35,738 bases of DNA. Source: a virus (lineage: Duplodnaviria; Heunggongvirae; Uroviricota; Caudoviricetes). Numbering within the stretch: position 1 is the first letter of the stretch; each line of letters begins with the position of its first letter. The position numbers were made by a program, and so were the translations under genes. The notes under the pieces are model-generated. The model worked only from the letters and a program-made list of their open reading frames with translations, made no database searches and was not told the DNA's origin. Below are positions 5,356 through 32,053 of the stretch, piece by piece. Location: the IMG/VR virus record IMGVR_UViG_2778261460_000003; one strand, given 5' to 3'.

Positions 5356-8149
5356 CATCCGGGTCGCTTTCAGCGCCGTTGACAGGCTGACCCGGCCTGC
5401 CGAAAACGCCCGCCGCCTGATGGGGCAGTTTGGTGACTCCATCCAGCGAACGCAGGGGGCGATCAAAAATCTCGAGCGTCAGGCGCGTTCATTTGAGCGC
5501 GCCCGCGACGCTGTCAGTAAAGCGGATGCGGGTATCGTGAAAGCACGACGCCAGCTTAACGCCCTTAATCAGTTACAACGCACGGGTACAGTGCTCAGCG
5601 AAAAACAACAAAAGCTGATGCAGCAGTTAAGCACCCGGCTTGAACGCCTGAATGAATCGCGCACACGGGAAATTCAGAAAATGCGGGAGCTTGGCGGAGA
5701 GCTGAAACGCCACGGCATTTCCCTGACAGGCAGCGATAACACCATCCAGCAGGCCATCAGACGCACCGAACAGTACAACAACCAGCTTGAACGCGAACGG
5801 CAGGCGCTTGCGCGTGTAACGCGGGCGCGTGAGCGGTATTCGCGCGCGCAGGAAACAGCGGGAAAACTGAAAACAGGTGGTGCGCTGGCAATTGGTGCGG
5901 CAGCGGCGGGCGGCTATGCTGCCGGGCGTTTTTTGCAGCCTGCGATCGGGTTCGGGAAAGAGATGTCCCGCGTTCAGGCACTGACGCGAATCGACAAAAA
6001 CAGCCCGCAGTTTAAGGCGCTGCGTGAGCAGGCGTTAAAACTTGGCTCTGAAACGCAGTTCACCGCAGGCGATGCCGCCAGTGGGCAGGCATTTCTTGCA
6101 ATGGCTGGCTTCACACCACAGGCCATTCAGGCTGCGCTCCCTGGCGTACTGAGCATGGCAACGGCTGGCGGTATGGACCTCGGTGAGACGGCGGATATTG
6201 GCTCAAATATTCTGACGCAGTTCGGTCTTTCTGCTGACCAGATGGACCGGGTCGGCGACACACTCACCGCAGCGTTTACCCGTACCAACACTGACCTTCG
6301 CGCACTGGGTGAAACCATGAAATATGCAGGTCCGGTGGCGGGTAAGCTGGGAATATCGCTGGAGCAGGCCGCAGCGATGGCGGGCGTGCTGGCGAATATG
6401 GGTATCAGGGGGAGTGATGCTGGTACGGCAATGCGTGCCAGCCTGGCTCGTCTGGCATCACCGCCAAAGGCGGCAGCAGAGGCGCTGAAAGAGCTTGGCG
6501 TGTCTGTCTCGGATGCCGGGGGCAAAATGCGCCCGATGGAGGATGTGCTGGCTGACCTTTATAAAGCTACCCGCAAATACGGGGAAGTTGACCGGGTATC
6601 GTTCTTTAAGGACATTGCCGGAGAAGAGGCTTTCACATCATTTATGGCCCTCGTTGATGCGGCAGGTGACGGCTCCTTACCCAAACTGAGAAAAGAACTT
6701 GAAGGCGCGCGCGGTGAGGCTGAACGCACGGCAAAGGTTATGGCCAACAACCTTGACGGCGATCTGAAATCACTCAGCAGTGCATGGGAAGGGTTGCGCA
6801 TCCGCATTGCAGATCTGATTGACGGTCCGCTGCGTTCTGTCACGCAGTGGCTCACGCGTGTGGTATCAAAGGTGACGGCGCTGGCGCAGGCCCATCCCGC
6901 ACTGACGCGCCAGCTACTGATTGCAGGCGGTGCACTGCTGGCAATGACTGCAACGGTTGGCTCGTTGTCGCTGGCTATTGGTGTGCTTGCTGGTCCGCTG
7001 GCAAAACTGCGTCTTGTTTTTTCCCTCCTGACCGGATCAATGAATGCTGTCAGGGTTCTGCCAGCACTATGGGGAATGGTGACGGGTTCCGTTTCGTTAC
7101 TGGGGGGCGCTATCGGGGCGTTGTTCAGTCCGGTCGGTCTTATCGTGGCTGCGCTTGCCGGAGCTGCCGTTCTCATCTGGAAATACTGGGATCCCATCAG
7201 GGCATTTTTTGCCGGGGTGTTCAGCGGGATTATGGAAAGGCTGACCCCGTTGCGCGAAACCTTTGAACGGTTTGGTCCTGTTTTTGACGCAATCGGAAGC
7301 GGGATCAGCCAGGTGTTTAACTGGTTTAAATCGCTGTTGTCACCGATGGAGTCCAGCAAGGAAACGCTGGATAAATGTACCAGTGCTGGCGAGGTATTCG
7401 GTAACGTTCTTGGCGGTGCGTTACAACTTGTTCTGACACCTGCAAAAATGCTACTGGATACGCTGGCGTGGATACTTGAAAAACTTGGCGTCCTTCCGGA
7501 TGAAGCGGAAAGGGCGCGCAAGAAAATCGAAGACGCACAGCGTGCGGCCATTCTTCAGGACAAGGTTGCCTTACTTCAGGGGGACCTGGCGAAAATCAAT
7601 CCGCCGAAGCCTGTGGAAAATGGCAATGGCACCGGAGGTGATAAACCCAAAGACAACAAACCGCTCACAGACAGCAATACCGGGACGCTACGCAGACTCA
7701 GCAAAATTGCTGATAACACAGGTAAGCTGGTTGATGAGACGAAAAAACGCATTGGCCCCGGCGATATTGTCTTTAAGAACTTGCCCCGCGCACTTGCTGT
7801 TCGTGGGGAGTGGCAGGAGCGGAAGATTGCACAGGTCAGAAAGCCTGCCCCCGCAATTAATATCACCCCCGTGGTCCCGGCTCCGCTGCCTCCGGCGCTG
7901 GTCCCTGTTGTTGCGGCCAGCTCCCACCCGGTGGCGGAGGCCATACGATCTCCAGTGGCATCAGTTCCTGTAACTTCCCGTAACCGGGAGCCTGTTGCCT
8001 CCGGATTTGGTGGTGAAATTCATGTTCATCTGCATAACGTTGTTACGCAGAATCCCCGCGAACTGGCGAAACTGGTCGGTGAAATGGTCAGGGCAGAAAT
8101 GGAACGGCGCGCCCGTGCCGGGCGTGGCAGTTTTTACGATAAAGATTGA
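5306..8149 (+). CDS. T: Tail tape measure protein (gpT)
   Basis: 947-aa ORF with a coiled-coil-like N-terminal region (runs of R/Q/E/L), a central Gly/Ala-rich hydrophobic segment and a Pro/Ala-rich C-terminus; located after E/E'. Start could be 5306, 5333 or 5342. Confidence 0.85.
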   Translation: MSGRHFAAGMQIMKTLDIRVAFSAVDRLTRPAENARRLMGQFGDSIQRTQGAIKNLERQARSFERARDAVSKADAGIVKARRQLNALNQLQRTGTVLSEKQQKLMQQLSTRLERLNESRTREIQKMRELGGELKRHGISLTGSDNTIQQAIRRTEQYNNQLERERQALARVTRARERYSRAQETAGKLKTGGALAIGAAAAGGYAAGRFLQPAIGFGKEMSRVQALTRIDKNSPQFKALREQALKLGSETQFTAGDAASGQAFLAMAGFTPQAIQAALPGVLSMATAGGMDLGETADIGSNILTQFGLSADQMDRVGDTLTAAFTRTNTDLRALGETMKYAGPVAGKLGISLEQAAAMAGVLANMGIRGSDAGTAMRASLARLASPPKAAAEALKELGVSVSDAGGKMRPMEDVLADLYKATRKYGEVDRVSFFKDIAGEEAFTSFMALVDAAGDGSLPKLRKELEGARGEAERTAKVMANNLDGDLKSLSSAWEGLRIRIADLIDGPLRSVTQWLTRVVSKVTALAQAHPALTRQLLIAGGALLAMTATVGSLSLAIGVLAGPLAKLRLVFSLLTGSMNAVRVLPALWGMVTGSVSLLGGAIGALFSPVGLIVAALAGAAVLIWKYWDPIRAFFAGVFSGIMERLTPLRETFERFGPVFDAIGSGISQVFNWFKSLLSPMESSKETLDKCTSAGEVFGNVLGGALQLVLTPAKMLLDTLAWILEKLGVLPDEAERARKKIEDAQRAAILQDKVALLQGDLAKINPPKPVENGNGTGGDKPKDNKPLTDSNTGTLRRLSKIADNTGKLVDETKKRIGPGDIVFKNLPRALAVRGEWQERKIAQVRKPAPAINITPVVPAPLPPALVPVVAASSHPVAEAIRSPVASVPVTSRNREPVASGFGGEIHVHLHNVVTQNPRELAKLVGEMVRAEMERRARAGRGSFYDKD

Positions 8150-8657: not shown

Positions 8658-8687
8658 AAAACCGCTAATGGTCAGATTAGCGGTTTT
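8658..8687. terminator. Bidirectional rho-independent terminator between convergent U and the invertase
   Basis: Perfect 12-bp stem AAAACCGCTAAT / ATTAGCGGTTTT with a 6-nt loop; T-runs on both strands; the stem includes the invertase stop codon. Confidence 0.55.
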
Positions 8688-9276
8688 CATTTTCCTGAGT
8701 CTGCCTGGTTGTTTCTTCAGCCTGTATATCGCCTACAGGGTGATAACGATAAATCGTCGATATGCCGATGTCGTAAATGATCGCCAGTTGTTTCCTGTCA
8801 TGACCGTTTTTAATCAGCCTCGCTATTTGCTCGTGTTGTTCTTTTGTCAACTTCGGGCGACGTCCGCCAATGCGTCCTTGTGCGCGTGCTGCTGCCAGCC
8901 CGGCCAGTGTACGCTCTACAATTAATTCACGTTCCATTTCGGCTAAAGCTCCCATGACGTGAAAAAAGAAACGCCCCATGGGTGTTGATGTGTCAATGCT
9001 GTCCGTCAGACTACGGAAATTAACACCTTTTTCCCGCAATTCCTCAATAAGCGTGATCAGGTGTTTCATACTTCTGCCCAGTCTGTCCAGCTTCCAGACA
9101 ACCAGCGTATCTCCTTCTGATAGCGTTCTGAGCAGTTTTTTCAATCCCGGTCTGGCTGATTTCGTTCCGCTGATTTTATCTTCAAAAATCAGTTCACATC
9201 CTGCGCACTCCAGCGCGTTACGCTGCAATTCTGTATTCTGGTCATTTGTTGATACGCGGACATAGCCAATAAGCAT
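8677..9276 (-). CDS. Serine recombinase, DNA invertase of the Pin/Gin/Cin/Hin family
   Basis: MLIGYVRVSTNDQ N-terminus with catalytic Ser in VSTNDQ, then WKLDRLGRSMKHL and a C-terminal HTH; closely matches my recollection of e14 Pin. Adjacent to the invertible fibre segment. Confidence 0.9.
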   Translation of the reverse strand: MLIGYVRVSTNDQNTELQRNALECAGCELIFEDKISGTKSARPGLKKLLRTLSEGDTLVVWKLDRLGRSMKHLITLIEELREKGVNFRSLTDSIDTSTPMGRFFFHVMGALAEMERELIVERTLAGLAAARAQGRIGGRRPKLTKEQHEQIARLIKNGHDRKQLAIIYDIGISTIYRYHPVGDIQAEETTRQTQENENR

Positions 9277-24171: not shown

Positions 24172-26376
24172 TTACGTGTCGAGAGAAATTTGTGTGCGCA
24201 GTTGAATAGGATTCAGAATTGTATATCGCTGGCGAATAACATTATATAAATCAAAGTCTTTTACCCTTACGCTTATTACCATCGCATATTGCATATCAGG
24301 GGCTGAAACTCCCTTAACATGGCGCGAAGAATCTCGGGCATGATACCGTATATCAAAAACTGGATCGCTTAATAATGTATCAGCACTGAACTTTTTGCTT
24401 CTGTGCAAACAAGTTTCCCACTTATGACCTTCACTCCTACACTCCCTTTCAGTCTTATACTGGCTTTTTTGACCAAAGAAATCATCTGTATCGGTATCGT
24501 CAAGGCCGAATCTTGGGCGGAAAGTTACCTGCATACCGGCCCTTGTATAGTTTACTGAATGTTCAGGATCTACTGGGGTTTGAATGCATAAAGTAGCGGT
24601 AAGCTCAAATGCTTCGTCAAAGGGAACATCAGGGAATGGGATCGGTGCCCTTAAATATTTATTTTTTGCTAATGAACCATAGTAAATTACTGTAGCAGTA
24701 TCATTTGGACAATCGATTAAAACGTTAGGATCCTCACTAAACCGTCCCCAACCGATATGTTCACGCGAATATTTTCTTGATGTTTCAGCATGATGAACAA
24801 GCAACGCTTTCAATGCAATGGTGTTCAATGGAGTTCCTGATAGAGCCGCAACTCCAGCGGCCGTTCTCAATGCTAATGGAGAGGCATAACTGGTTCCTTG
24901 AACTCCAACTATAGAACCAAGCAGAGGGTTGTAAGTGTAAAAAGGCTCGTCGTCGCTTCCACCAAAAATAACACCATCAGGTTTAACGAATCCGGGGCTT
25001 CTGCCTGGCCCAATACAGCTATATGGTGCCCGCCCCCATTTTTCACCGCTACGATCAGCAGCACCAATCGCTAGCGCGTTTACCATATCGGAAGGAGGTT
25101 GTATTCTCGCTGCATCACCGTCCTCATTGCCATCATTCCCAACAGCAACAGTAAGTAATATCCCATGCTTAGCACAGATTTGGTCTAAAACAGCAGTCCA
25201 TACATGAACCTCATCATCACCAATTGGAAGATGAGGACCAATACTTAGATTAGCGAACTTATAGTCACCACTATCAAGAACGGACTGTATTTTCTTAAGG
25301 ACATCAAATAAATCCCAATTGCCATTGTCACCTGATGTCGGTGAAAGAACTCTATAATGATCTACATTCATAAACGGTCTTTTAAAAGAAGGTGCATTTT
25401 CCTCGACACGTCCGAATAAGAAAGTGGATGTCACTTCATTACCGTGCTGCAATAATAATCCGCTTGTTTCTTTGGTGTCTGGATACACGTATTCCGTAAC
25501 CCAATTACTCAAGTCAGCTGTCCCCAAGCCACCATCAAAAATGGCAATACGTTCGGATTCAAGAACAGCTTTAGAATTAGGGAGCTCCGGTGTAACTATA
25601 TTAGATAACTTTCTGACAATGTTCGGCTGAGTACACCTGAGAGACGGCATCGGCCGCACAACGCGGATTAATGAAAAATCGAGTGTTTTTTTCATATCTT
25701 CAGGTCGCGCGTGTGCAACGATGAAAGTCAGCCCACCAACTTGGATTCTACTTTTGTAATCAACAGAGACATCATATTGTGCCGCATAGCTAATATAGGC
25801 TTTAACGATATCATCGTCTTCAACCCCAGCATGAAGAACCACTTCAAATTTTATCAAATCACTTTTCGCATGCTCAAAATTGCGTGCTCTCTCTTTTCCT
25901 TCAAAAAAGCTAACACTTTCAATTTCGATCAAATCCTTTTGTACGCCCTTCGGAGCTGTAGGGGAATTTAAAATTTCCTTAAATCTTATAACGGCATCAT
26001 CATCACCGCTAACAAACAGTTGCGCCGTTACTAAGTCCTTATTCTGATCGCACTGACGTGCCGCTTTCCGTGGGCGAATGATTACCTGACGGCTACCGAC
26101 ATCCCGTAAACCTGTCGCTCTAAGCAATCCTTCCGGAAAGTAGCTTTTACCCAAAAACGCTGGGTGTAAAGTTAAATTGAATACACTCTCCCCCCTTGGC
26201 TTAGCCGCATCATCCAAACTGCGAAAGCGTGAGAGTAAAGTATCAATCTCTGGGTTTAAATGCTCCCTTACTTCTTCAAGAGTATAGGGATAGCGCTTAC
26301 CATCCCTTCCTTTAGGCAAAGGTTCCTTTTTTGTCAGAACATGACCGTTACCTAAAAGTAAGTTCCTTTCCATCAT
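24172..26376 (-). CDS. Subtilisin-like serine peptidase (S8 family) with N- and C-terminal extensions, 734 aa
   Basis: Motifs IAIFDGGLG (Asp), LLQHGNEV (His), VAVGNDGNEDG (oxyanion Asn), GTSYASPLALRTAAG (Ser); AT-rich; 4-nt overlap with the upstream ATPase gene. Confidence 0.8.
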   Translation of the reverse strand: MMERNLLLGNGHVLTKKEPLPKGRDGKRYPYTLEEVREHLNPEIDTLLSRFRSLDDAAKPRGESVFNLTLHPAFLGKSYFPEGLLRATGLRDVGSRQVIIRPRKAARQCDQNKDLVTAQLFVSGDDDAVIRFKEILNSPTAPKGVQKDLIEIESVSFFEGKERARNFEHAKSDLIKFEVVLHAGVEDDDIVKAYISYAAQYDVSVDYKSRIQVGGLTFIVAHARPEDMKKTLDFSLIRVVRPMPSLRCTQPNIVRKLSNIVTPELPNSKAVLESERIAIFDGGLGTADLSNWVTEYVYPDTKETSGLLLQHGNEVTSTFLFGRVEENAPSFKRPFMNVDHYRVLSPTSGDNGNWDLFDVLKKIQSVLDSGDYKFANLSIGPHLPIGDDEVHVWTAVLDQICAKHGILLTVAVGNDGNEDGDAARIQPPSDMVNALAIGAADRSGEKWGRAPYSCIGPGRSPGFVKPDGVIFGGSDDEPFYTYNPLLGSIVGVQGTSYASPLALRTAAGVAALSGTPLNTIALKALLVHHAETSRKYSREHIGWGRFSEDPNVLIDCPNDTATVIYYGSLAKNKYLRAPIPFPDVPFDEAFELTATLCIQTPVDPEHSVNYTRAGMQVTFRPRFGLDDTDTDDFFGQKSQYKTERECRSEGHKWETCLHRSKKFSADTLLSDPVFDIRYHARDSSRHVKGVSAPDMQYAMVISVRVKDFDLYNVIRQRYTILNPIQLRTQISLDT

Positions 26377-27455
26377 TTAATCCCCCACTTTTGTAATTTA
26401 TTCGCGATTGTTGGATGTGAAACACCAACTAATTCAGCTATCTTCCTATTTGAAAAACCGTCAAAATGATATTTAATTATATTGAGATCATTATCGCTAA
26501 ACTCATCCAATGAAACCCTCTCCGTAATTACGGCTTCTATTAATGAGCTTTCAAATGGAATATTTCTAAGTACCTCATTCTTTTTGGAGAAATTCAAAAT
26601 ACGGTTAATGATGGCAAAGGACATGCCATCTAATAATGGTGCAAGTTTTTTAGATAGTTCAGGTTCAATATTATGATTGACTAAATATCTATCTATCAGT
26701 TCTACTGATGGCATATTAAATTTAAGGATGTGCTCAAATCGACGCCAAACAGCCGGATCTAAGATATCAGGGTGATTAGTCGCAGCAACAAGAAGCGAGG
26801 TCGCTGGCCACTCATCTATGGTCTGTAGGAGTACAGTAACTAAACGTTTTAATTCTCCAACGTCCCTGTCATCATCACGTCTTTTTGCAACAGCATCAAA
26901 TTCATCAAGCAAAAGGACACATGGTTTCTCTTTGGCATAATCCATAACGGATTTAATATTATTACCTGTTTTTCCCAAAAGAGAACTCATTACAGATGAG
27001 AGATCCAATGTTAAAAGAGGTAAATTTAACTTTGCAGCAAGCCAATGTGCGGACATTGTTTTGCCTACGCCTGGCGGGCCAGAAAGTAAAACCGTCTTCA
27101 CAGGTTCAAGACCAGCTTTGAACAAAGAAACCGCATTCTCTCTTTCGTTAACAATTGACTCCAGCTTCTTTGAGATATCCGTATTCCATACAGGTTCTTC
27201 AACAATTGCGTTGACAGATGTTTCCTGCAAAAGGTTTCGTCTGGAGTCTCCATCCACAGGCATAGGAGCCTTACTAGATGCCCCACGTAATACTGTTCCC
27301 TCAGCAACTAACGAAGCCAGCTTAGAAGCTAAAGCCTCATCATTTTTACGGATGTTGTTAATCATCTTTCTGCATAGGAGTGTAAATGCATTTGCGTTGC
27401 CTTTGATGCCTTGCTCGATGAGTTTGAAAAGTTCATCCTCCCTCACGTTTACCAT
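26373..27455 (-). CDS. AAA+ ATPase with C-terminal HTH-like region, 360 aa
   Basis: Walker A GPPGVGKT, Walker B VLLLDEFD; C-terminal NRKIAELVGVSHPTIANKLQKWG resembles an HTH; AT-rich. Confidence 0.8.
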   Translation of the reverse strand: MVNVREDELFKLIEQGIKGNANAFTLLCRKMINNIRKNDEALASKLASLVAEGTVLRGASSKAPMPVDGDSRRNLLQETSVNAIVEEPVWNTDISKKLESIVNERENAVSLFKAGLEPVKTVLLSGPPGVGKTMSAHWLAAKLNLPLLTLDLSSVMSSLLGKTGNNIKSVMDYAKEKPCVLLLDEFDAVAKRRDDDRDVGELKRLVTVLLQTIDEWPATSLLVAATNHPDILDPAVWRRFEHILKFNMPSVELIDRYLVNHNIEPELSKKLAPLLDGMSFAIINRILNFSKKNEVLRNIPFESSLIEAVITERVSLDEFSDNDLNIIKYHFDGFSNRKIAELVGVSHPTIANKLQKWGIK

Positions 27456-27759
27456 AAAACCCCCAATAAAACATCAGCTTGTGTAAGCTGGTAACTACAT
27501 TAATGAAAATCATTGACTAATGTTACCACTCTTGCTGGCGTAATTCAAAGAGTATCCTCACTTTTTTACTGTATGGATAATCAGCATAAAATCTATCCAG
27601 TTGGGTTACTCGAACATACTGTCAATACTTGTTTCCAACGATTGATCAGTTCTACAGTTTTATCTCCTTCACTTGTGTTGGCAGCATGCTTATTCCTGAA
27701 CCAGCTCGATTACTTGGCCATTTGAGAAAGATGTGTAGATCTTCTGATGGTTTGTATTG

Positions 27760-27791
27760 GAACGGGGTGCATAGTGATTTGCACCCCGTTC
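27760..27791. other. Strong GC-rich hairpin (12-bp perfect stem) between the ParR-like and ATPase genes
   Basis: GAACGGGGTGCA-tagtgatt-TGCACCCCGTTC, followed by TTTATGTTAT on the plus strand. Confidence 0.5.
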
Positions 27792-27833
27792 TTTATGTTA
27801 TGGGATTGGTGGCAGGGCGAATACGCCCTGATG

Positions 27834-28145
27834 TTATTCAGGAAATAACGCCCGGATATTTCCGGCCATCTGACTGGTTATCTGTGCGGTTGATACTGGC
27901 TGTGACGCGGGGCGTTCTGTCCTGGTTTGTGTCACTGATAACACCTCATCATCAGCCCATGCAGCCAGTCGGTAAGCCTCTGCCGGATTCATTTTCAGAA
28001 GTGCCAGCCCGGCCAGAAAAGCCACGCGTTGGCCGCTTTTGCGGGCTTCTGGTGTAAGGCTGTCCAGCCAGGCGCATGCTTCTCCTTCGTTCTTGACGGC
28101 GGTGGGCTTCAGATAGAAACTTATCCGTCTGGTTGGAGTCGTCAT
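27834..28145 (-). CDS. parR: ParR-like centromere-binding adaptor protein
   Basis: RRISFYLKP...LDSLTPEARKSGQRVAFLAGLAL...RALFPE parallels my recollection of R1 ParR (RRTIAFKLNP...LDSIPQGERS...ALTAGLAL...RSLFPKE); directly downstream of the ParM-like gene. Confidence 0.6.
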   Translation of the reverse strand: MTTPTRRISFYLKPTAVKNEGEACAWLDSLTPEARKSGQRVAFLAGLALLKMNPAEAYRLAAWADDEVLSVTQTRTERPASQPVSTAQITSQMAGNIRALFPE

Positions 28146-28149
28146 TGGT

Positions 28150-29109
28150 TTACTCCTTGTCCATTGCGTACAGCCCATTAACCAGAGCAAACTGTGGCAC
28201 CCCGTCCGCGATGAAAGTCGCATTAACTCCGCAGGCTTCGCGGATAGCGGGTGCCACAATCTCCGCCCCTCCACCGACAACCATCACCCGCCCGTAACCC
28301 GAAAAAACCGCCAGCGCGCGGATCACGCGTTGTTTCAGTGTTTCTTCCTTTTCACGAATAACCGCCATCAGGCTGGCGTAATGCGCGTCATTGTGGATGT
28401 GCTGGCGCAGCCAGGCTTCATCATGGCGATGTTCGATAATGGTATTGGCGATGTGGTGACTGGTGCGCATACCGTTAGTGGCCATCACCGACAGTACTGC
28501 ATCGGCCATCAGAGAAACGCCTACGTGTGGATCGCAAAACACCTGGCTGATACCTGCCAGTTGCCCCTGAACCTTTGCCACATCCAGCGTGGTTCCGCCC
28601 AAATCCACAATCAGCAGGGATTCAAACGGACTCATGTCAGCCAGTGCCTTAAAGCCAGCCGGAATGGATTCAGGCATAACCCGCACGTTACGGATAGTGA
28701 ATGCCTCACCGTTCTGGTACTCCACCGGGCGCATAACGTTCGCTTTTTTGCGGTTGATGTTGGCCATGTCCGGCTGGGCGTTAGTGTCGAAATATTCGCT
28801 CAGTGGCAGGGTGACAACCACATCCACTTCCTGTGGCGTGATGCCTGATTTGACCAGCGCGTGATGAATGGCAATGACATTCACATCGCTGTACTGGTAT
28901 TGCGTGTCGGTCGTCTGGACAAAGCGATCGCTGACCGGATCAAAACCATAGCGCACGCCATCAAGCATGTAGTTCGCAGGCTGCGAGCCACCGAACGGCG
29001 CAGACCATTCCGACTTGAAGCTGTTCGGGCTGATGGCGTTGCGGCGTTCGCCGTTTTCAGTCCATGCCAGCTTGATGTTGGTGGAGCCGTCGTCGATACA
29101 AATTTTCAT
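28150..29109 (-). CDS. parM: ParM/StbA-like actin-fold segregation ATPase
   Basis: N-terminus MKICIDDGSTNIKLAW...ISPNSFKSEW...YSDVNVIAIHHAL closely parallels ParM of plasmid R1 (MLVFIDDGSTNIKLQW...) as I recall it. Confidence 0.75.
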   Translation of the reverse strand: MKICIDDGSTNIKLAWTENGERRNAISPNSFKSEWSAPFGGSQPANYMLDGVRYGFDPVSDRFVQTTDTQYQYSDVNVIAIHHALVKSGITPQEVDVVVTLPLSEYFDTNAQPDMANINRKKANVMRPVEYQNGEAFTIRNVRVMPESIPAGFKALADMSPFESLLIVDLGGTTLDVAKVQGQLAGISQVFCDPHVGVSLMADAVLSVMATNGMRTSHHIANTIIEHRHDEAWLRQHIHNDAHYASLMAVIREKEETLKQRVIRALAVFSGYGRVMVVGGGAEIVAPAIREACGVNATFIADGVPQFALVNGLYAMDKE

Positions 29110-29140
29110 GTCGATTTTCCTTATGTTGGTTAATTAACCG

Positions 29141-29252
29141 TTTACGGGATTTTTAAATCCCGCTTTCGCCTGTTTTGTGCGCGCTTCATATATCGCGGCG
29201 TGTTTTTTGCTCATTTGCGGGATTTGTGAATCCCGTTTCTGTCTGTTTTTTG
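29141..29252. repeat. Two approx. 38-bp direct repeats, each with a CGGGATTT-N-AATCCCG palindrome (candidate ParR-binding / parC-like sites)
   Basis: 29141-29179 and 29214-29252 share about 31 of 38 positions, 73 bp apart; one lies between A and parM, the other inside the 3' end of A. Confidence 0.4.
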
Positions 29253-32053
29253 TTGCCACTGGTCAGGCTACCCCGCAGCAGGTCTGCTTTGCGGCGGGCG
29301 CGTTCAGTGGTTTCACTGATTCTCTGTGCGTGCTCTGCGTCACGAATGGCGCGCAGCATGTCAGAAAGCACGGTAACGGGTGTTTTCATGGTGTTCTGGT
29401 CCTGCTGAAGTGTGGATGCCAGGCGTGCGGCGGCTTCGGGGTCTGATGCCCCGAGCTGTGCCAGATAGCTGGCGACCGGGTTATGGCGGATCTCCGTGCT
29501 GCTTACGCCGTGATTACGGCTCAGGCGCTGCCAGAGCTGCGTGATTCGGCTGTCCGGGCGGGTATCCGGTTTGCGTACAATTTCAAATCCCTGCGGTGCA
29601 ATGATGCTGCCGTCAACGTACAGGCTGCCGCCCCGTAACAGGTGCTGCATCTGCTGTTCACCGATATGCAGGCCGAGAGATTCGGCAGACTCCCGCCATT
29701 CTTTAGCGAGTAATTCGTGGTTATCAGGCAAAGGCTGTGGCTGTTTGCGGCTCTGTGTCCAGTTCTGCATTTCATCACTGCTGTTTTTGGCCTGTTTGTC
29801 ACGCAGCGAACGCATCAGTGCCCGGCGTTCGTGCCGTTTCAGTGAGCGCATCCATTCATTCACTTCAATGCCGTCAGGGAGCTGCGGCCACGGTGCTGGC
29901 CGTTCTTCCGGCTGTTCTGTCCCGTTGTTGTCCGTTTCCTGTACACGGGGACAGTTATTGCCACGAGTCCAAGGGGCGGCAGGGCCGCCCTGAAGGTCAA
30001 AACCATTTTCGCGGGTGCTGTCCTCCGCTTCCGGTTTACGTCTTACCAGCTTCCAGTTATCCGGATGCGTGCACACACGGGAGGATTCCCCGATGAATGG
30101 CGACCAGATCCCGTAAATCTGTACACTCTGTTCGCCGTAATCGTTCAGCTCATCTGCGAGGTCGTAGGCTGTGCGAATCAGGTAGTCCTTGCGCGGAACA
30201 AGTACGCCACCCTGTTTTTCAATGTAGGTGGCAAAACACCCGGCATCAGCGGCAGCAAGAACCGCATCCATTGCGTCATCCTTCAGCCGTTGCGGGCCTT
30301 CCGGGTTGCGTGCCATCTGGCTGGCAAGGCGGCGGAGTTCACGCCACACCTGACGGGAGGGGATGCCAAAGAACTGGAACTGGCGGACCCGGTGAAGGCG
30401 CGCCCAGCCGATGGCGCGCTCCACGCTCTCGGCCATTGATTTACCTGTTTCGTGGTCAACGCGTGGCTTGCCCGTTTTCGGGTCGATGCCATCCACGGCG
30501 CGGCTGTCCAGGTTCTTTCCGATGTAGGTGGCGATGTAGCTGGTTGGCGTGCCTTTTGAGCCGTCGACGTACTCCGCCTTAAAGCGTGGGGTAATATCAT
30601 CACCCAGCTCGTGACGATCTTCCTGAATGGCAATATCGCGGGTGTGGGACACAATGGTGTCGATTTCTTCCGGATGAGCAAAGACCATCATATGCCAGTG
30701 CACGGTGCCGTCATGGTGAGGCTCTACCGTGCGGATGCCATACCAGCGCAGGCCGTCGCGGTTCAGTTTCTTGCGGACCGCTGCAAAAAACGTGTTAACC
30801 AGGTAATCGCTGGAGTCGCGCATGGTGGCCCCGTTCCATTTGGGATTCGGATGACCGTTCTCTGTTGTGGCGTGGTATTTTGACGGGCAGGTGACAGTCA
30901 GAAACACCGCTTTGTCGCCACGGGCTTCGGCCAGAAGTTCCAGCCCCTTCATGGTGGCCATCATTTCTGCCTTACGGTGAACCGGGTTACTTACTCCCGC
31001 GTAATACACTGTCTCGAGAGCAATCGTGAATCCGTCTTCGTTTTCCAGCATGAAACTTTTCAGGAAATCGCGTGTTTTCTCGCGCTGCGCGCGAAACTCG
31101 CTTAATGCGTCCTGACTCAGATAGGGCGATGTTTTTCTGGAAACCAGACAGGCGGCGCGGAGTTGTTCTTCCCGCCACTCGCAACGTAACAGCCACAGTT
31201 TGCGTTTCCACCATTCCGCACAGGTCAGGCGAAGGATTGCGCCCGGCAGCAGCTCCGTGTCCGGTTCGTTCCTCCGGTCTTTGTCTGTTGTCAGTGCGTC
31301 ATAATGTGGAGGCATGGCGTGCAGGTGTAACGCCATGCGGGCCAGCATCTGATACGCCTTCAGCGTTACATCCATGGTCAGCTCGCCATCAGTCGCGCCA
31401 AAGCTATCGCAGAGTTTTTCGAAGGTGCTGCTGAACATCGCCGCCGTCATGGTGGCCAGCGTCTGTATCTGGTGTTTGTTGAGCTGCGGCAGGTAAAGCA
31501 AATCGTCCAGGCGTTCGCGTCCGGTAAGGGAGCGATAACCCGGTGTCAGCCAGCGGTGATCGGTGCGTTCCAGGCGTTCGAATATTTTGCGCAGGTTTCC
31601 GCGCGCGTAGCGTTCAGCCTGCCAGCTCTTTTTGCCTTTCTGACGATCGGATTCCTGTTTTTTGCGCAGGAAAGAGAGGTGGCGGCTCAGAGGTTCACGC
31701 AGATAAACGGGAAGCACTTTCAGTGTGGCAAAAGCACGGGCCACCGGGTCTTGTTCTGTTGCCTGACGCTTGCTGATGATGCTTTGTGCCAGCTTTTCAC
31801 GCTGTCCGGCTTCCTCAAGGGATGCCATGAGTTTTTTACCCACGGTGGATTGTGCGAAAAATGCTTCCTCCTTCGCTTCCTGTTCTTCCAGGGCCTTTTT
31901 GTCTGCCTCAAGGTAGTAACGGATGGCGCGTTGCAGGTCGGTTTCAGTTTCCTGCCTGTGCTCCGTAAATCTGGCCGGATCAATGGCTGGTCGTGGTTCA
32001 TTCCAGCTCCATGCAAACTCACTCATGGCTGGTATCCCGTCACGCGCTGCCAC
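29186..32053 (-). CDS. A: Replication initiation endonuclease gpA (rolling-circle HUH family)
   Basis: HWHMMVF (HUH-like) and TSYIATYIGK (Y-x3-Y twin-tyrosine) motifs as in P2 A; start codon uncertain (32053 or 32026). Confidence 0.85.
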   Translation of the reverse strand: MAARDGIPAMSEFAWSWNEPRPAIDPARFTEHRQETETDLQRAIRYYLEADKKALEEQEAKEEAFFAQSTVGKKLMASLEEAGQREKLAQSIISKRQATEQDPVARAFATLKVLPVYLREPLSRHLSFLRKKQESDRQKGKKSWQAERYARGNLRKIFERLERTDHRWLTPGYRSLTGRERLDDLLYLPQLNKHQIQTLATMTAAMFSSTFEKLCDSFGATDGELTMDVTLKAYQMLARMALHLHAMPPHYDALTTDKDRRNEPDTELLPGAILRLTCAEWWKRKLWLLRCEWREEQLRAACLVSRKTSPYLSQDALSEFRAQREKTRDFLKSFMLENEDGFTIALETVYYAGVSNPVHRKAEMMATMKGLELLAEARGDKAVFLTVTCPSKYHATTENGHPNPKWNGATMRDSSDYLVNTFFAAVRKKLNRDGLRWYGIRTVEPHHDGTVHWHMMVFAHPEEIDTIVSHTRDIAIQEDRHELGDDITPRFKAEYVDGSKGTPTSYIATYIGKNLDSRAVDGIDPKTGKPRVDHETGKSMAESVERAIGWARLHRVRQFQFFGIPSRQVWRELRRLASQMARNPEGPQRLKDDAMDAVLAAADAGCFATYIEKQGGVLVPRKDYLIRTAYDLADELNDYGEQSVQIYGIWSPFIGESSRVCTHPDNWKLVRRKPEAEDSTRENGFDLQGGPAAPWTRGNNCPRVQETDNNGTEQPEERPAPWPQLPDGIEVNEWMRSLKRHERRALMRSLRDKQAKNSSDEMQNWTQSRKQPQPLPDNHELLAKEWRESAESLGLHIGEQQMQHLLRGGSLYVDGSIIAPQGFEIVRKPDTRPDSRITQLWQRLSRNHGVSSTEIRHNPVASYLAQLGASDPEAAARLASTLQQDQNTMKTPVTVLSDMLRAIRDAEHAQRISETTERARRKADLLRGSLTSGNKKQTETGFTNPANEQKTRRDI

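Follow-up and report, generated by a model that had tools for sequence, protein, structure and literature searches.

An R1-type ParM/ParR cassette downstream of the replication gene in P88-like prophages of Escherichia coli and its possible role in positioning phage DNA

The IMG/VR virus record IMGVR_UViG_2778261460_000003, a stretch of 35,738 nucleotides referred to below as the window, is a P88-like prophage of Escherichia coli that belongs to the P2 family (genus Xuanwuvirus, Peduoviridae). At positions 27834 to 29109, on the minus strand, it carries two genes, parM and parR, which by their sequences form an intact R1-type ParM/ParR (type II, actin-like) DNA-segregation cassette. We give an even chance to the proposal that this cassette positions or distributes extrachromosomal circles of phage DNA, either in the early or lytic phase of replication or ahead of integration, and is not a device for plasmid maintenance. 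The original prediction had placed the pair just downstream of gene A in a P2-like prophage with an integrase and a repressor, and all of these elements were located in the window, which encodes an integrase and a helix-turn-helix repressor together with portal, terminase, and tail genes. The chromosome of E. coli strain 6883 matches the cassette region at 100% identity, and the prophage adjoins btuC there.

The assignment of parM (28150..29109, minus strand) as the gene for an actin-fold segregation ATPase of 319 amino acids draws on Pfam, a PDB match, conserved motifs, and substitution rates. The protein, which starts with MKICIDDGSTNIKLAW, matches the Pfam domain StbA_N with an E value of 2.1e-82 (score of 275 for a cut-off of 24.6 bits) and the ParM C-terminal domain with an E value of 6.3e-69. 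ParM of plasmid R1 (PDB 1mwk) aligns to residues 2 to 316 with an E value of 6.3e-93 and about 50% identity in the HMMER alignment, so that the likeness to ParM first noticed at the N-terminus extends over nearly the whole protein and stands up to profile searches. Moreover, the nucleotide-binding and hydrolysis motifs (phosphate 1, DDGS; catalytic E; phosphate 2, DLGGTT; adenosine, GGGA) align to the same residues of R1 ParM, and the residues D6 D7 G8 S9 T10, E147, D169 L170 G171 G172 T173 T174, and G279 G280 G281 A282 are invariant across the ParMs of the phage clade described below. No NCBIfam model scored above its cut-off for ParM or ParR. The matches of the two proteins to the ParM and ParR families are far beyond chance.

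The second gene, parR (27834..28145, minus strand), opens with an ATG at position 28145, 4 nt past the parM stop codon. A longer reading of the same open reading frame, started at a TTG, would give 148 amino acids (27834-28280); the ATG start, giving 103 amino acids, agrees with public annotation. By its sequence, the product is the adaptor of the system, with an N-terminal domain predicted to be of the ribbon-helix-helix type, a hypervariable linker, and a tail with the sequence NIRALFPE. It matches the Pfam family Plasmid_stab_B (PF10784; E value of 7.7e-24), and BLASTP aligns it to ParR/StbB of plasmid R100 over the N-terminal 56 amino acids (34% identity; E value of 2e-8). A profile built from 29 ParR alleles found 2jd3, the StbB/ParR protein of pB171, as its best PDB match, with an E value of 0.015 over the DNA-binding N-domain. 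The parallel with ParR proposed for the 103-residue protein is thus substantiated by three comparisons, and the gene order, parM then parR, is indeed that of R1 and R100. The AlphaFold2 model of the ParR monomer was poor (mean pLDDT, the predicted local distance difference test, of 57); it predicts helices at residues 20-29, 32-52, and 54-68 but does not form the N-terminal strand, as expected for an obligate dimer. A Foldseek search of the PDB with this poor model returned no meaningful match (best E value of 5.4).

ParR is variable in E. coli, with 53 to 95% identity between alleles, and the variation is concentrated in the linker, at about residues 68 to 93, whereas the N-terminal 65 residues and the C-terminal tail are conserved among the 29 alleles. 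The tail, M-x-x-N-I-R-A-L-F-P-E, is nearly invariant in these alleles, and a shorter motif, N-[AI]-x-x-L-[FI], is common to the ParRs of Hafnia, Plesiomonas, Serratia, and Enterobacter and to the end of R100 ParR (KKNAMKLIN). ParR proteins have a three-part build, with which the conservation pattern of the phage protein agrees. The tail of R1 ParR reportedly binds ParM, a result said to come from the 2012 work of Gayathri et al. (PDB 4a62). We considered diversifying selection on the DNA specificity of ParR and rejected it, since the variability lies in the linker, the N-domain and tail are conserved, and the ratio of nonsynonymous to synonymous substitution rates (dN/dS) is below 1. A swap of parR alleles was observed in phage vB_EcoM-569R5 (positions 2241-2555 of our locus L009) and in Escherichia albertii (positions 6965-7276 of our locus L013): ParR is there only 53 to 55% identical to that of the window, parM is 99 to 100% identical, the upstream palindromes are the same, and homology breaks about 18 codons into parR.

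The position of the cassette bears on the time at which it would be expressed. The upstream neighbor of parM is gene A (29186..32053, minus strand), which encodes the rolling-circle replication initiator (Phage_GPA, E value of 1.2e-130) and ends at position 29186, 76 nt upstream of parM. A consensus scan found no sigma-70-like promoter on the minus strand between 27300 and 29700, and a scan for intrinsic terminators found none on that strand between A and parM. Upstream of parM in the Serratia and Plesiomonas relatives, the consensus scan likewise gave no usable or convincing promoter or terminator. Because neither signal separates A from parM, parM and parR are probably the tail of the early replication operon, cotranscribed with A. 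This early-operon position would imply that the cassette is made when the phage genome is extrachromosomal and not in the repressed, integrated prophage. Gene A itself is long, with 955 amino acids from the first GTG and 940 in the annotation of the Prokaryotic Genome Annotation Pipeline (PGAP); its Phage_GPA domain covers residues 194 to 518 only, the C-terminal part matches separate PHROGs, and the last codons overlap the distal of the two palindromes described next.

Upstream of parM, two 39-nt repeats straddle the stop codon of gene A, each holding an 18- to 20-nt palindrome of the form CGGGA-N8-TCCCG; the palindromes are 73 bp apart. The proximal repeat (29141..29179, minus strand), identified as a direct and inverted repeat, lies in the spacer between A and parM and has the core palindrome CGGGATTTAAAAATCCCG at 29145-29162. 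The distal repeat (29214..29252, minus strand) lies in the last codons of A and has the core palindrome CGGGATTCACAAATCCCG at 29218-29235. The motif occurs at just these two places in the window, a count reached in 0 of 100 shuffled sequences, and we consider the pair as a candidate centromere, with each palindrome a candidate ParR-binding site. The GGGA and AATCCC arms are invariant in nine related phage sequences while the palindrome center varies. The two-copy layout recurs in E. albertii and Salmonella prophages, with a spacing of 73 bp; Plesiomonas has two GCGGGAC...CCC units 72 bp apart, and inspection by eye showed a pair of GGG-N10-CCC sites in Hafnia, spaced by about 70 bp. Serratia and Enterobacter have instead a 14- to 20-nt inverted repeat with arms 20 to 28 nt apart. 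Read on the plus strand, the interval 29141-29252 has T-rich tracts after both palindromes and includes one scored intrinsic terminator, antisense to A; the hairpins upstream of Serratia parM have the same orientation as the phage palindromes. An Rfam search of 27300-29500 found no RNA family.

This arrangement is unlike the centromere of the plasmid systems. In R100, parC consists of direct iterons of 11 bp in a 5+5 arrangement on the two sides of a promoter, whereas the phage has two palindromes, one of them inside gene A, and no recognizable promoter of its own. The many short direct repeats that lie upstream of parM in an R1-type parC are replaced in the phage by only two palindrome units, and for the ParR-autoregulated promoter found inside parC, the consensus scan revealed no sigma-70-like site. 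A matrix built from the R100 iterons gave five overlapping matches of at least 8 bits upstream of phage parM; 187 other windows averaged 0.58 such matches and had at most 4. The enrichment in iteron-like 11-mers is thus weak. We also considered a centromere downstream of parR and rejected it: in each phage, two hairpins and then unrelated cargo follow the gene, with no shared repeats.

The cassette is widespread and old. Fourteen deposited phage records, those of P88 and Citrobacter phage PhiSM among them, contain the module at 95 to 99% identity, and the cassette was found in 1308 of 5426 complete E. coli genomes (RefSeq; 24%). Other genera have P2-like prophages with the same succession of A, parM, parR, variable cargo, and portal, and ParM is there 62% (Hafnia), 62% (Plesiomonas), 58% (Serratia), and 54% (Enterobacter) identical to that of the window. 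To compare ParM identity with gene context, we used 32 loci, with one representative genome per species, and four more from protein look-ups. All the ParMs that are at least 54% identical to the window ParM are encoded beside gpA, and none of those at 53% or below are. The phage-linked ParMs form a single clade, separate from plasmid ParMs, with a neighbor-joining bootstrap of 88/100. Across these phages, ParM (54 to 62% identity) is conserved as highly as, or more highly than, A (31 to 56%) and the portal protein (30 to 46%). On the strength of the gpA linkage, the single clade, and the conservation of ParM, the cassette can be reconstructed as having been acquired once and vertically kept by one deep P2-like lineage, and not as recent cargo. 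A mosaic phage of E. albertii NBRC 107761 joins A (96% identical to the window) and ParM (100%) to a portal and a terminase that are only 30% and 35% identical, respectively.

Substitution rates speak to the possibility that the cassette is an inert relic of an old plasmid-phage recombination, of no use to the phage. Between the window and close relatives, dN/dS is 0.014-0.095 for parM (with dS up to 0.16), 0.12 for gene A, and 0.22-0.59 for parR, and these values place parM under strong purifying selection. The catalytic motifs are invariant and the ParR tail nearly so, and synteny is kept at 54 to 62% protein identity across at least four other genera, all of which is at odds with a relic. 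In favor of one, frameshifted or truncated parM genes are found in many deposited sequences (among them P0009 and P0017), parM is broken into four pieces in phage 503458, and the cassette is absent from about three quarters of P2-like phages (PMC9122126). Clusters of truncated or frameshifted ParMs comprise 649 members of 229 amino acids, 555 of 188 amino acids, and 414 of 261 amino acids (P0009, P0017, and P0006, respectively), which suggests pseudogenization in some widespread prophage lineages, although some of these sequences may be contig-end artifacts. Taken together, we judge a relic to be very improbable. The suggestion that the module is a long-standing component of the phage, made on its base composition, is reinforced by the monophyly of the ParMs, the synteny across genera, and the low dN/dS of parM, and the underlying compositional contrast was confirmed: the GC (guanine plus cytosine) content of the module is 0.50-0.56, similar to that of the phage backbone, as opposed to 0.40-0.43 for the ATPase/peptidase pair downstream.

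Where the cassette resides bears on a second explanation, in which it would enable P88-like phages to be kept as circular episomes of low copy number, for instance when the host has no attachment site; the prophage would then be a facultative plasmid, with an episomal lysogenic state beside the integrated one. This explanation, which the original prediction offered speculatively along with DNA positioning and co-option, has been suggested in print (PMC7969092; PMC9122126), and it gains from the completeness of the ParM/ParR pair, homologous to a proven plasmid stabilizer, and from NZ_CP148288.1 (our locus L001), a 34,461-bp circular "plasmid" in a complete E. coli assembly that consists of an entire P88-like genome. 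However, among 1456 places of the cassette in the 1308 E. coli genomes, 1454 are chromosomal and two are on plasmids, and the P88-like phage PhiSM lysogenizes K-12 via integration at pdxB (PMC6456863). An extrachromosomal location as the normal lysogenic state, which defines a phage-plasmid, is therefore not what we observe. NZ_CP148288.1 itself keeps the integrase gene, and a 996-bp segment of it, from the portal to the parR region, is 99.9% identical to the chromosomal sequence of another strain; a query specific for its cargo gave 1143 record matches. As a control, we noted that pENTAS02 of Enterobacter soli and pESL4.2 of Pantoea dispersa, P2-like and endowed with an integrase but with no partition genes, have also been deposited as circular plasmids of 30 to 33 kb. 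Since P2-like phages devoid of ParM/ParR are so deposited too, phage-sized "plasmid" records are no evidence of plasmid lysogeny; they probably represent excised or replicating phage DNA.

Replication functions point the same way. Profile searches of the window detected no plasmid-type replication initiator and none is annotated in NZ_CP148288.1, the sole initiator found being the rolling-circle protein A. By comparison, paPv10 of Arsenophonus nasoniae (NZ_CP123514.1), a circular P2-like element of 33.8 kb with full virion genes and gpA, encodes RepA and a ParA-like AAA ATPase, has no integrase in its annotation, and looks like a genuine P2-like phage-plasmid with a different maintenance kit. 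Given the chromosomal location in 1454 of the 1456 places, the lack of a plasmid-type replicon, and the lack of a promoter or terminator between A and parM, the evidence leans against stable plasmid lysogeny, and we regard the facultative plasmid prophage as unlikely. A rearranged P88-like prophage with A, parM, and parR was also seen at 39.7-66 kb of pC-Ec2-KPC (NZ_MK439959.1), a 228-kb conjugative IncC KPC plasmid of E. coli, with IS26 copies both inside the phage DNA and flanking it on one side. A prophage inside this plasmid explains some of the plasmid matches for phage ParM.

The sequences beyond parR delimit the cassette. Just past the parR stop codon, at two GC-rich hairpins (27813-27830 and 27759-27792), the conserved module gives way to variable cargo: the homology with P88 and further phages stops at 27813-27834, and the first hairpin is common to P88 and NZ_CP148288.1, after which the sequences diverge. 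In the window, the cargo comprises an IetA-like AAA ATPase (26373-27455, minus strand; PADLOC, 3.6e-89) and an IetS-like S8 peptidase (24172-26376, minus strand; PADLOC, 6.6e-41), whose NCBIfam matches to IteA/IteS are below cut-off. This low-GC pair is cargo separate from the cassette, lodged in the region from gpA to the portal gene gpQ, a known defense hotspot (Rousset et al. 2022, PMC9122126). Other phages carry HicAB, a KAP NTPase, or a ClpX-like zinc-finger protein after parR.

These surroundings raise the possibility that the cassette serves exclusion or competition, by interfering with the segregation of invading plasmids or phages whose ParMRC systems are related (incompatibility), or that it has another role in defense. 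The cassette lies within the gpA-gpQ hotspot, it directly adjoins the IetA/IetS-like pair, and the cargo past parR varies between phages. Yet the cassette is not part of that variable cargo: it keeps its place at the edge nearest to A, is monophyletic along with its phage lineage, and has the GC content of the backbone. In addition, no promoter is evident for expression in a lysogen, and the nearest plasmid ParM is 52.6% identical and R100 ParR 34% identical over the N-domain, which makes cross-reaction with plasmid centromeres unlikely. Neither ParM nor ParR has a match among PADLOC models, and on this ground, together with its fixed and monophyletic state in the phage lineage, we rejected the cassette as a defense system; for exclusion and competition at large, the explanation seems to us rather improbable. 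Elsewhere in the window, near the tail-fiber genes, a serine recombinase/DNA invertase is encoded (8677-9276, minus strand; Resolvase, E value of 6.2e-52, and HTH_7), which is presumably a Cin/Hin-type host-range switch.

Our current working hypothesis for the positioning of phage circles can be formulated as follows. ParR dimers would bind phage DNA through the N-terminal domain of the ribbon-helix-helix type, the likeliest sites being the two CGGGA-N8-TCCCG palindromes, whose 73-bp spacing amounts to about seven helical turns. The ParR tail, NIRALFPE, would then capture the ends of ATP-dependent ParM filaments, and the growing filaments would push phage DNA circles apart. Expression would take place either soon after infection, while the genome has yet to integrate, or once it has been excised and replicates by the rolling-circle mode, and would be off in the repressed prophage. 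In this more specific form, the early operon of a P2-type rolling-circle phage would encode a machine for DNA positioning that works from a minimal two-palindrome centromere overlapping the end of the replication gene, and this machine would separate or anchor circles in the course of replication or hold the incoming genome until integration; we advance this scheme tentatively, its chances being somewhat below even.

Several observations weigh against the positioning of phage circles as the role of the cassette. P2 and most P2-like phages replicate well without it, so the benefit cannot be an obligatory one. Frameshifted or truncated parM genes are common in some prophage lineages, which implies that an integrated prophage can do without the gene and which fits a transient role as well as decay. 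The two palindromes differ from every characterized parC, all of which have at least 10 repeats, and they resemble intrinsic terminators for the opposite strand. They are also unchanged in phage 569R5 despite its swapped ParR allele (55% identical); this constancy fits the first 20 ParR residues being shared and hence brings no support from covariation. The promoter scan was a crude consensus test, by which a weak ParR-regulated promoter could be missed. Finally, Enterobacter has two small genes between A and parM, and about 1.2 kb intervenes between the end of the gpA match and parM in Serratia quinivorans; strict coupling of parM to A is thus not universal.

The identification of the cassette is in itself already known from public annotation and two papers. 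PGAP names the proteins "plasmid segregation protein ParM" and "plasmid partitioning/stability family protein", and PHROGs 691 and 2515 are both labeled "partition protein". The phage-plasmid screen run by Pfeifer et al. 2021 (PMC7969092) detected P88, and that study and Rousset et al. 2022 (PMC9122126) proposed that such phages "may be maintained as plasmids". Our literature searches found no experimental study of a P88-type ParM or ParR.

Comparison with known systems places the phage cassette closest in its proteins to ParMRC of R1 and R100, with which it shares both protein families, the parM-parR order, the ATPase motifs, the ParR N-domain and tail motif, and the presence of repeated DNA upstream of parM. 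It differs in its carrier, an integrating P2-like prophage that is nearly always chromosomal, and in the length of ParR, 103 amino acids versus 116 to 117 in R1 and R100, in addition to the layout of the centromere. Phage-plasmids (P1, D6, N15, SSU5, and paPv10) resemble the window phage in being tailed temperate phages with a plasmid-type partition module, and the StbA/ParM of D6 is 47.8% identical to the window ParM; they differ in their plasmid lifestyle and dedicated replicons, whereas the window phage has an integrase and no plasmid replicon was found in it. By function, the best precedent for a ParMR-like system in an integrating phage would be AlpC/AlpA/alpS of prophage CGP3 of Corynebacterium glutamicum (Donovan et al. 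2015, PMC4446434; Forde et al. 2017, PMC5539076), in which an early-induced actin-like protein and a DNA-binding adaptor are needed for efficient phage DNA replication (PMC4446434). There too, an integrated prophage encodes an actin-like filament former and an adaptor, AlpA is cotranscribed, and the binding sites lie upstream of the operon. The host of CGP3 is Gram positive and the prophage large and unrelated, and function is experimentally established for CGP3 whereas the P88-type cassette is known from sequence.

The purpose of this cassette in an integrating phage has been guessed at twice in print, for a phage that is present in about a quarter of complete E. coli genomes. Were the cassette to permit lysogeny as an episome, a second lifestyle would be open to P2-like phages, and this would matter for the detection of prophages and for gene transfer. 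If it is a DNA-positioning machine, it would be the first Gram-negative counterpart of the AlpAC system of CGP3. Provided that it acts on extrachromosomal phage DNA while this replicates or becomes established, actin-like segregation would be a regular part of the biology of enterobacterial temperate phages, and P88 and PhiSM would offer a tractable E. coli model of it.

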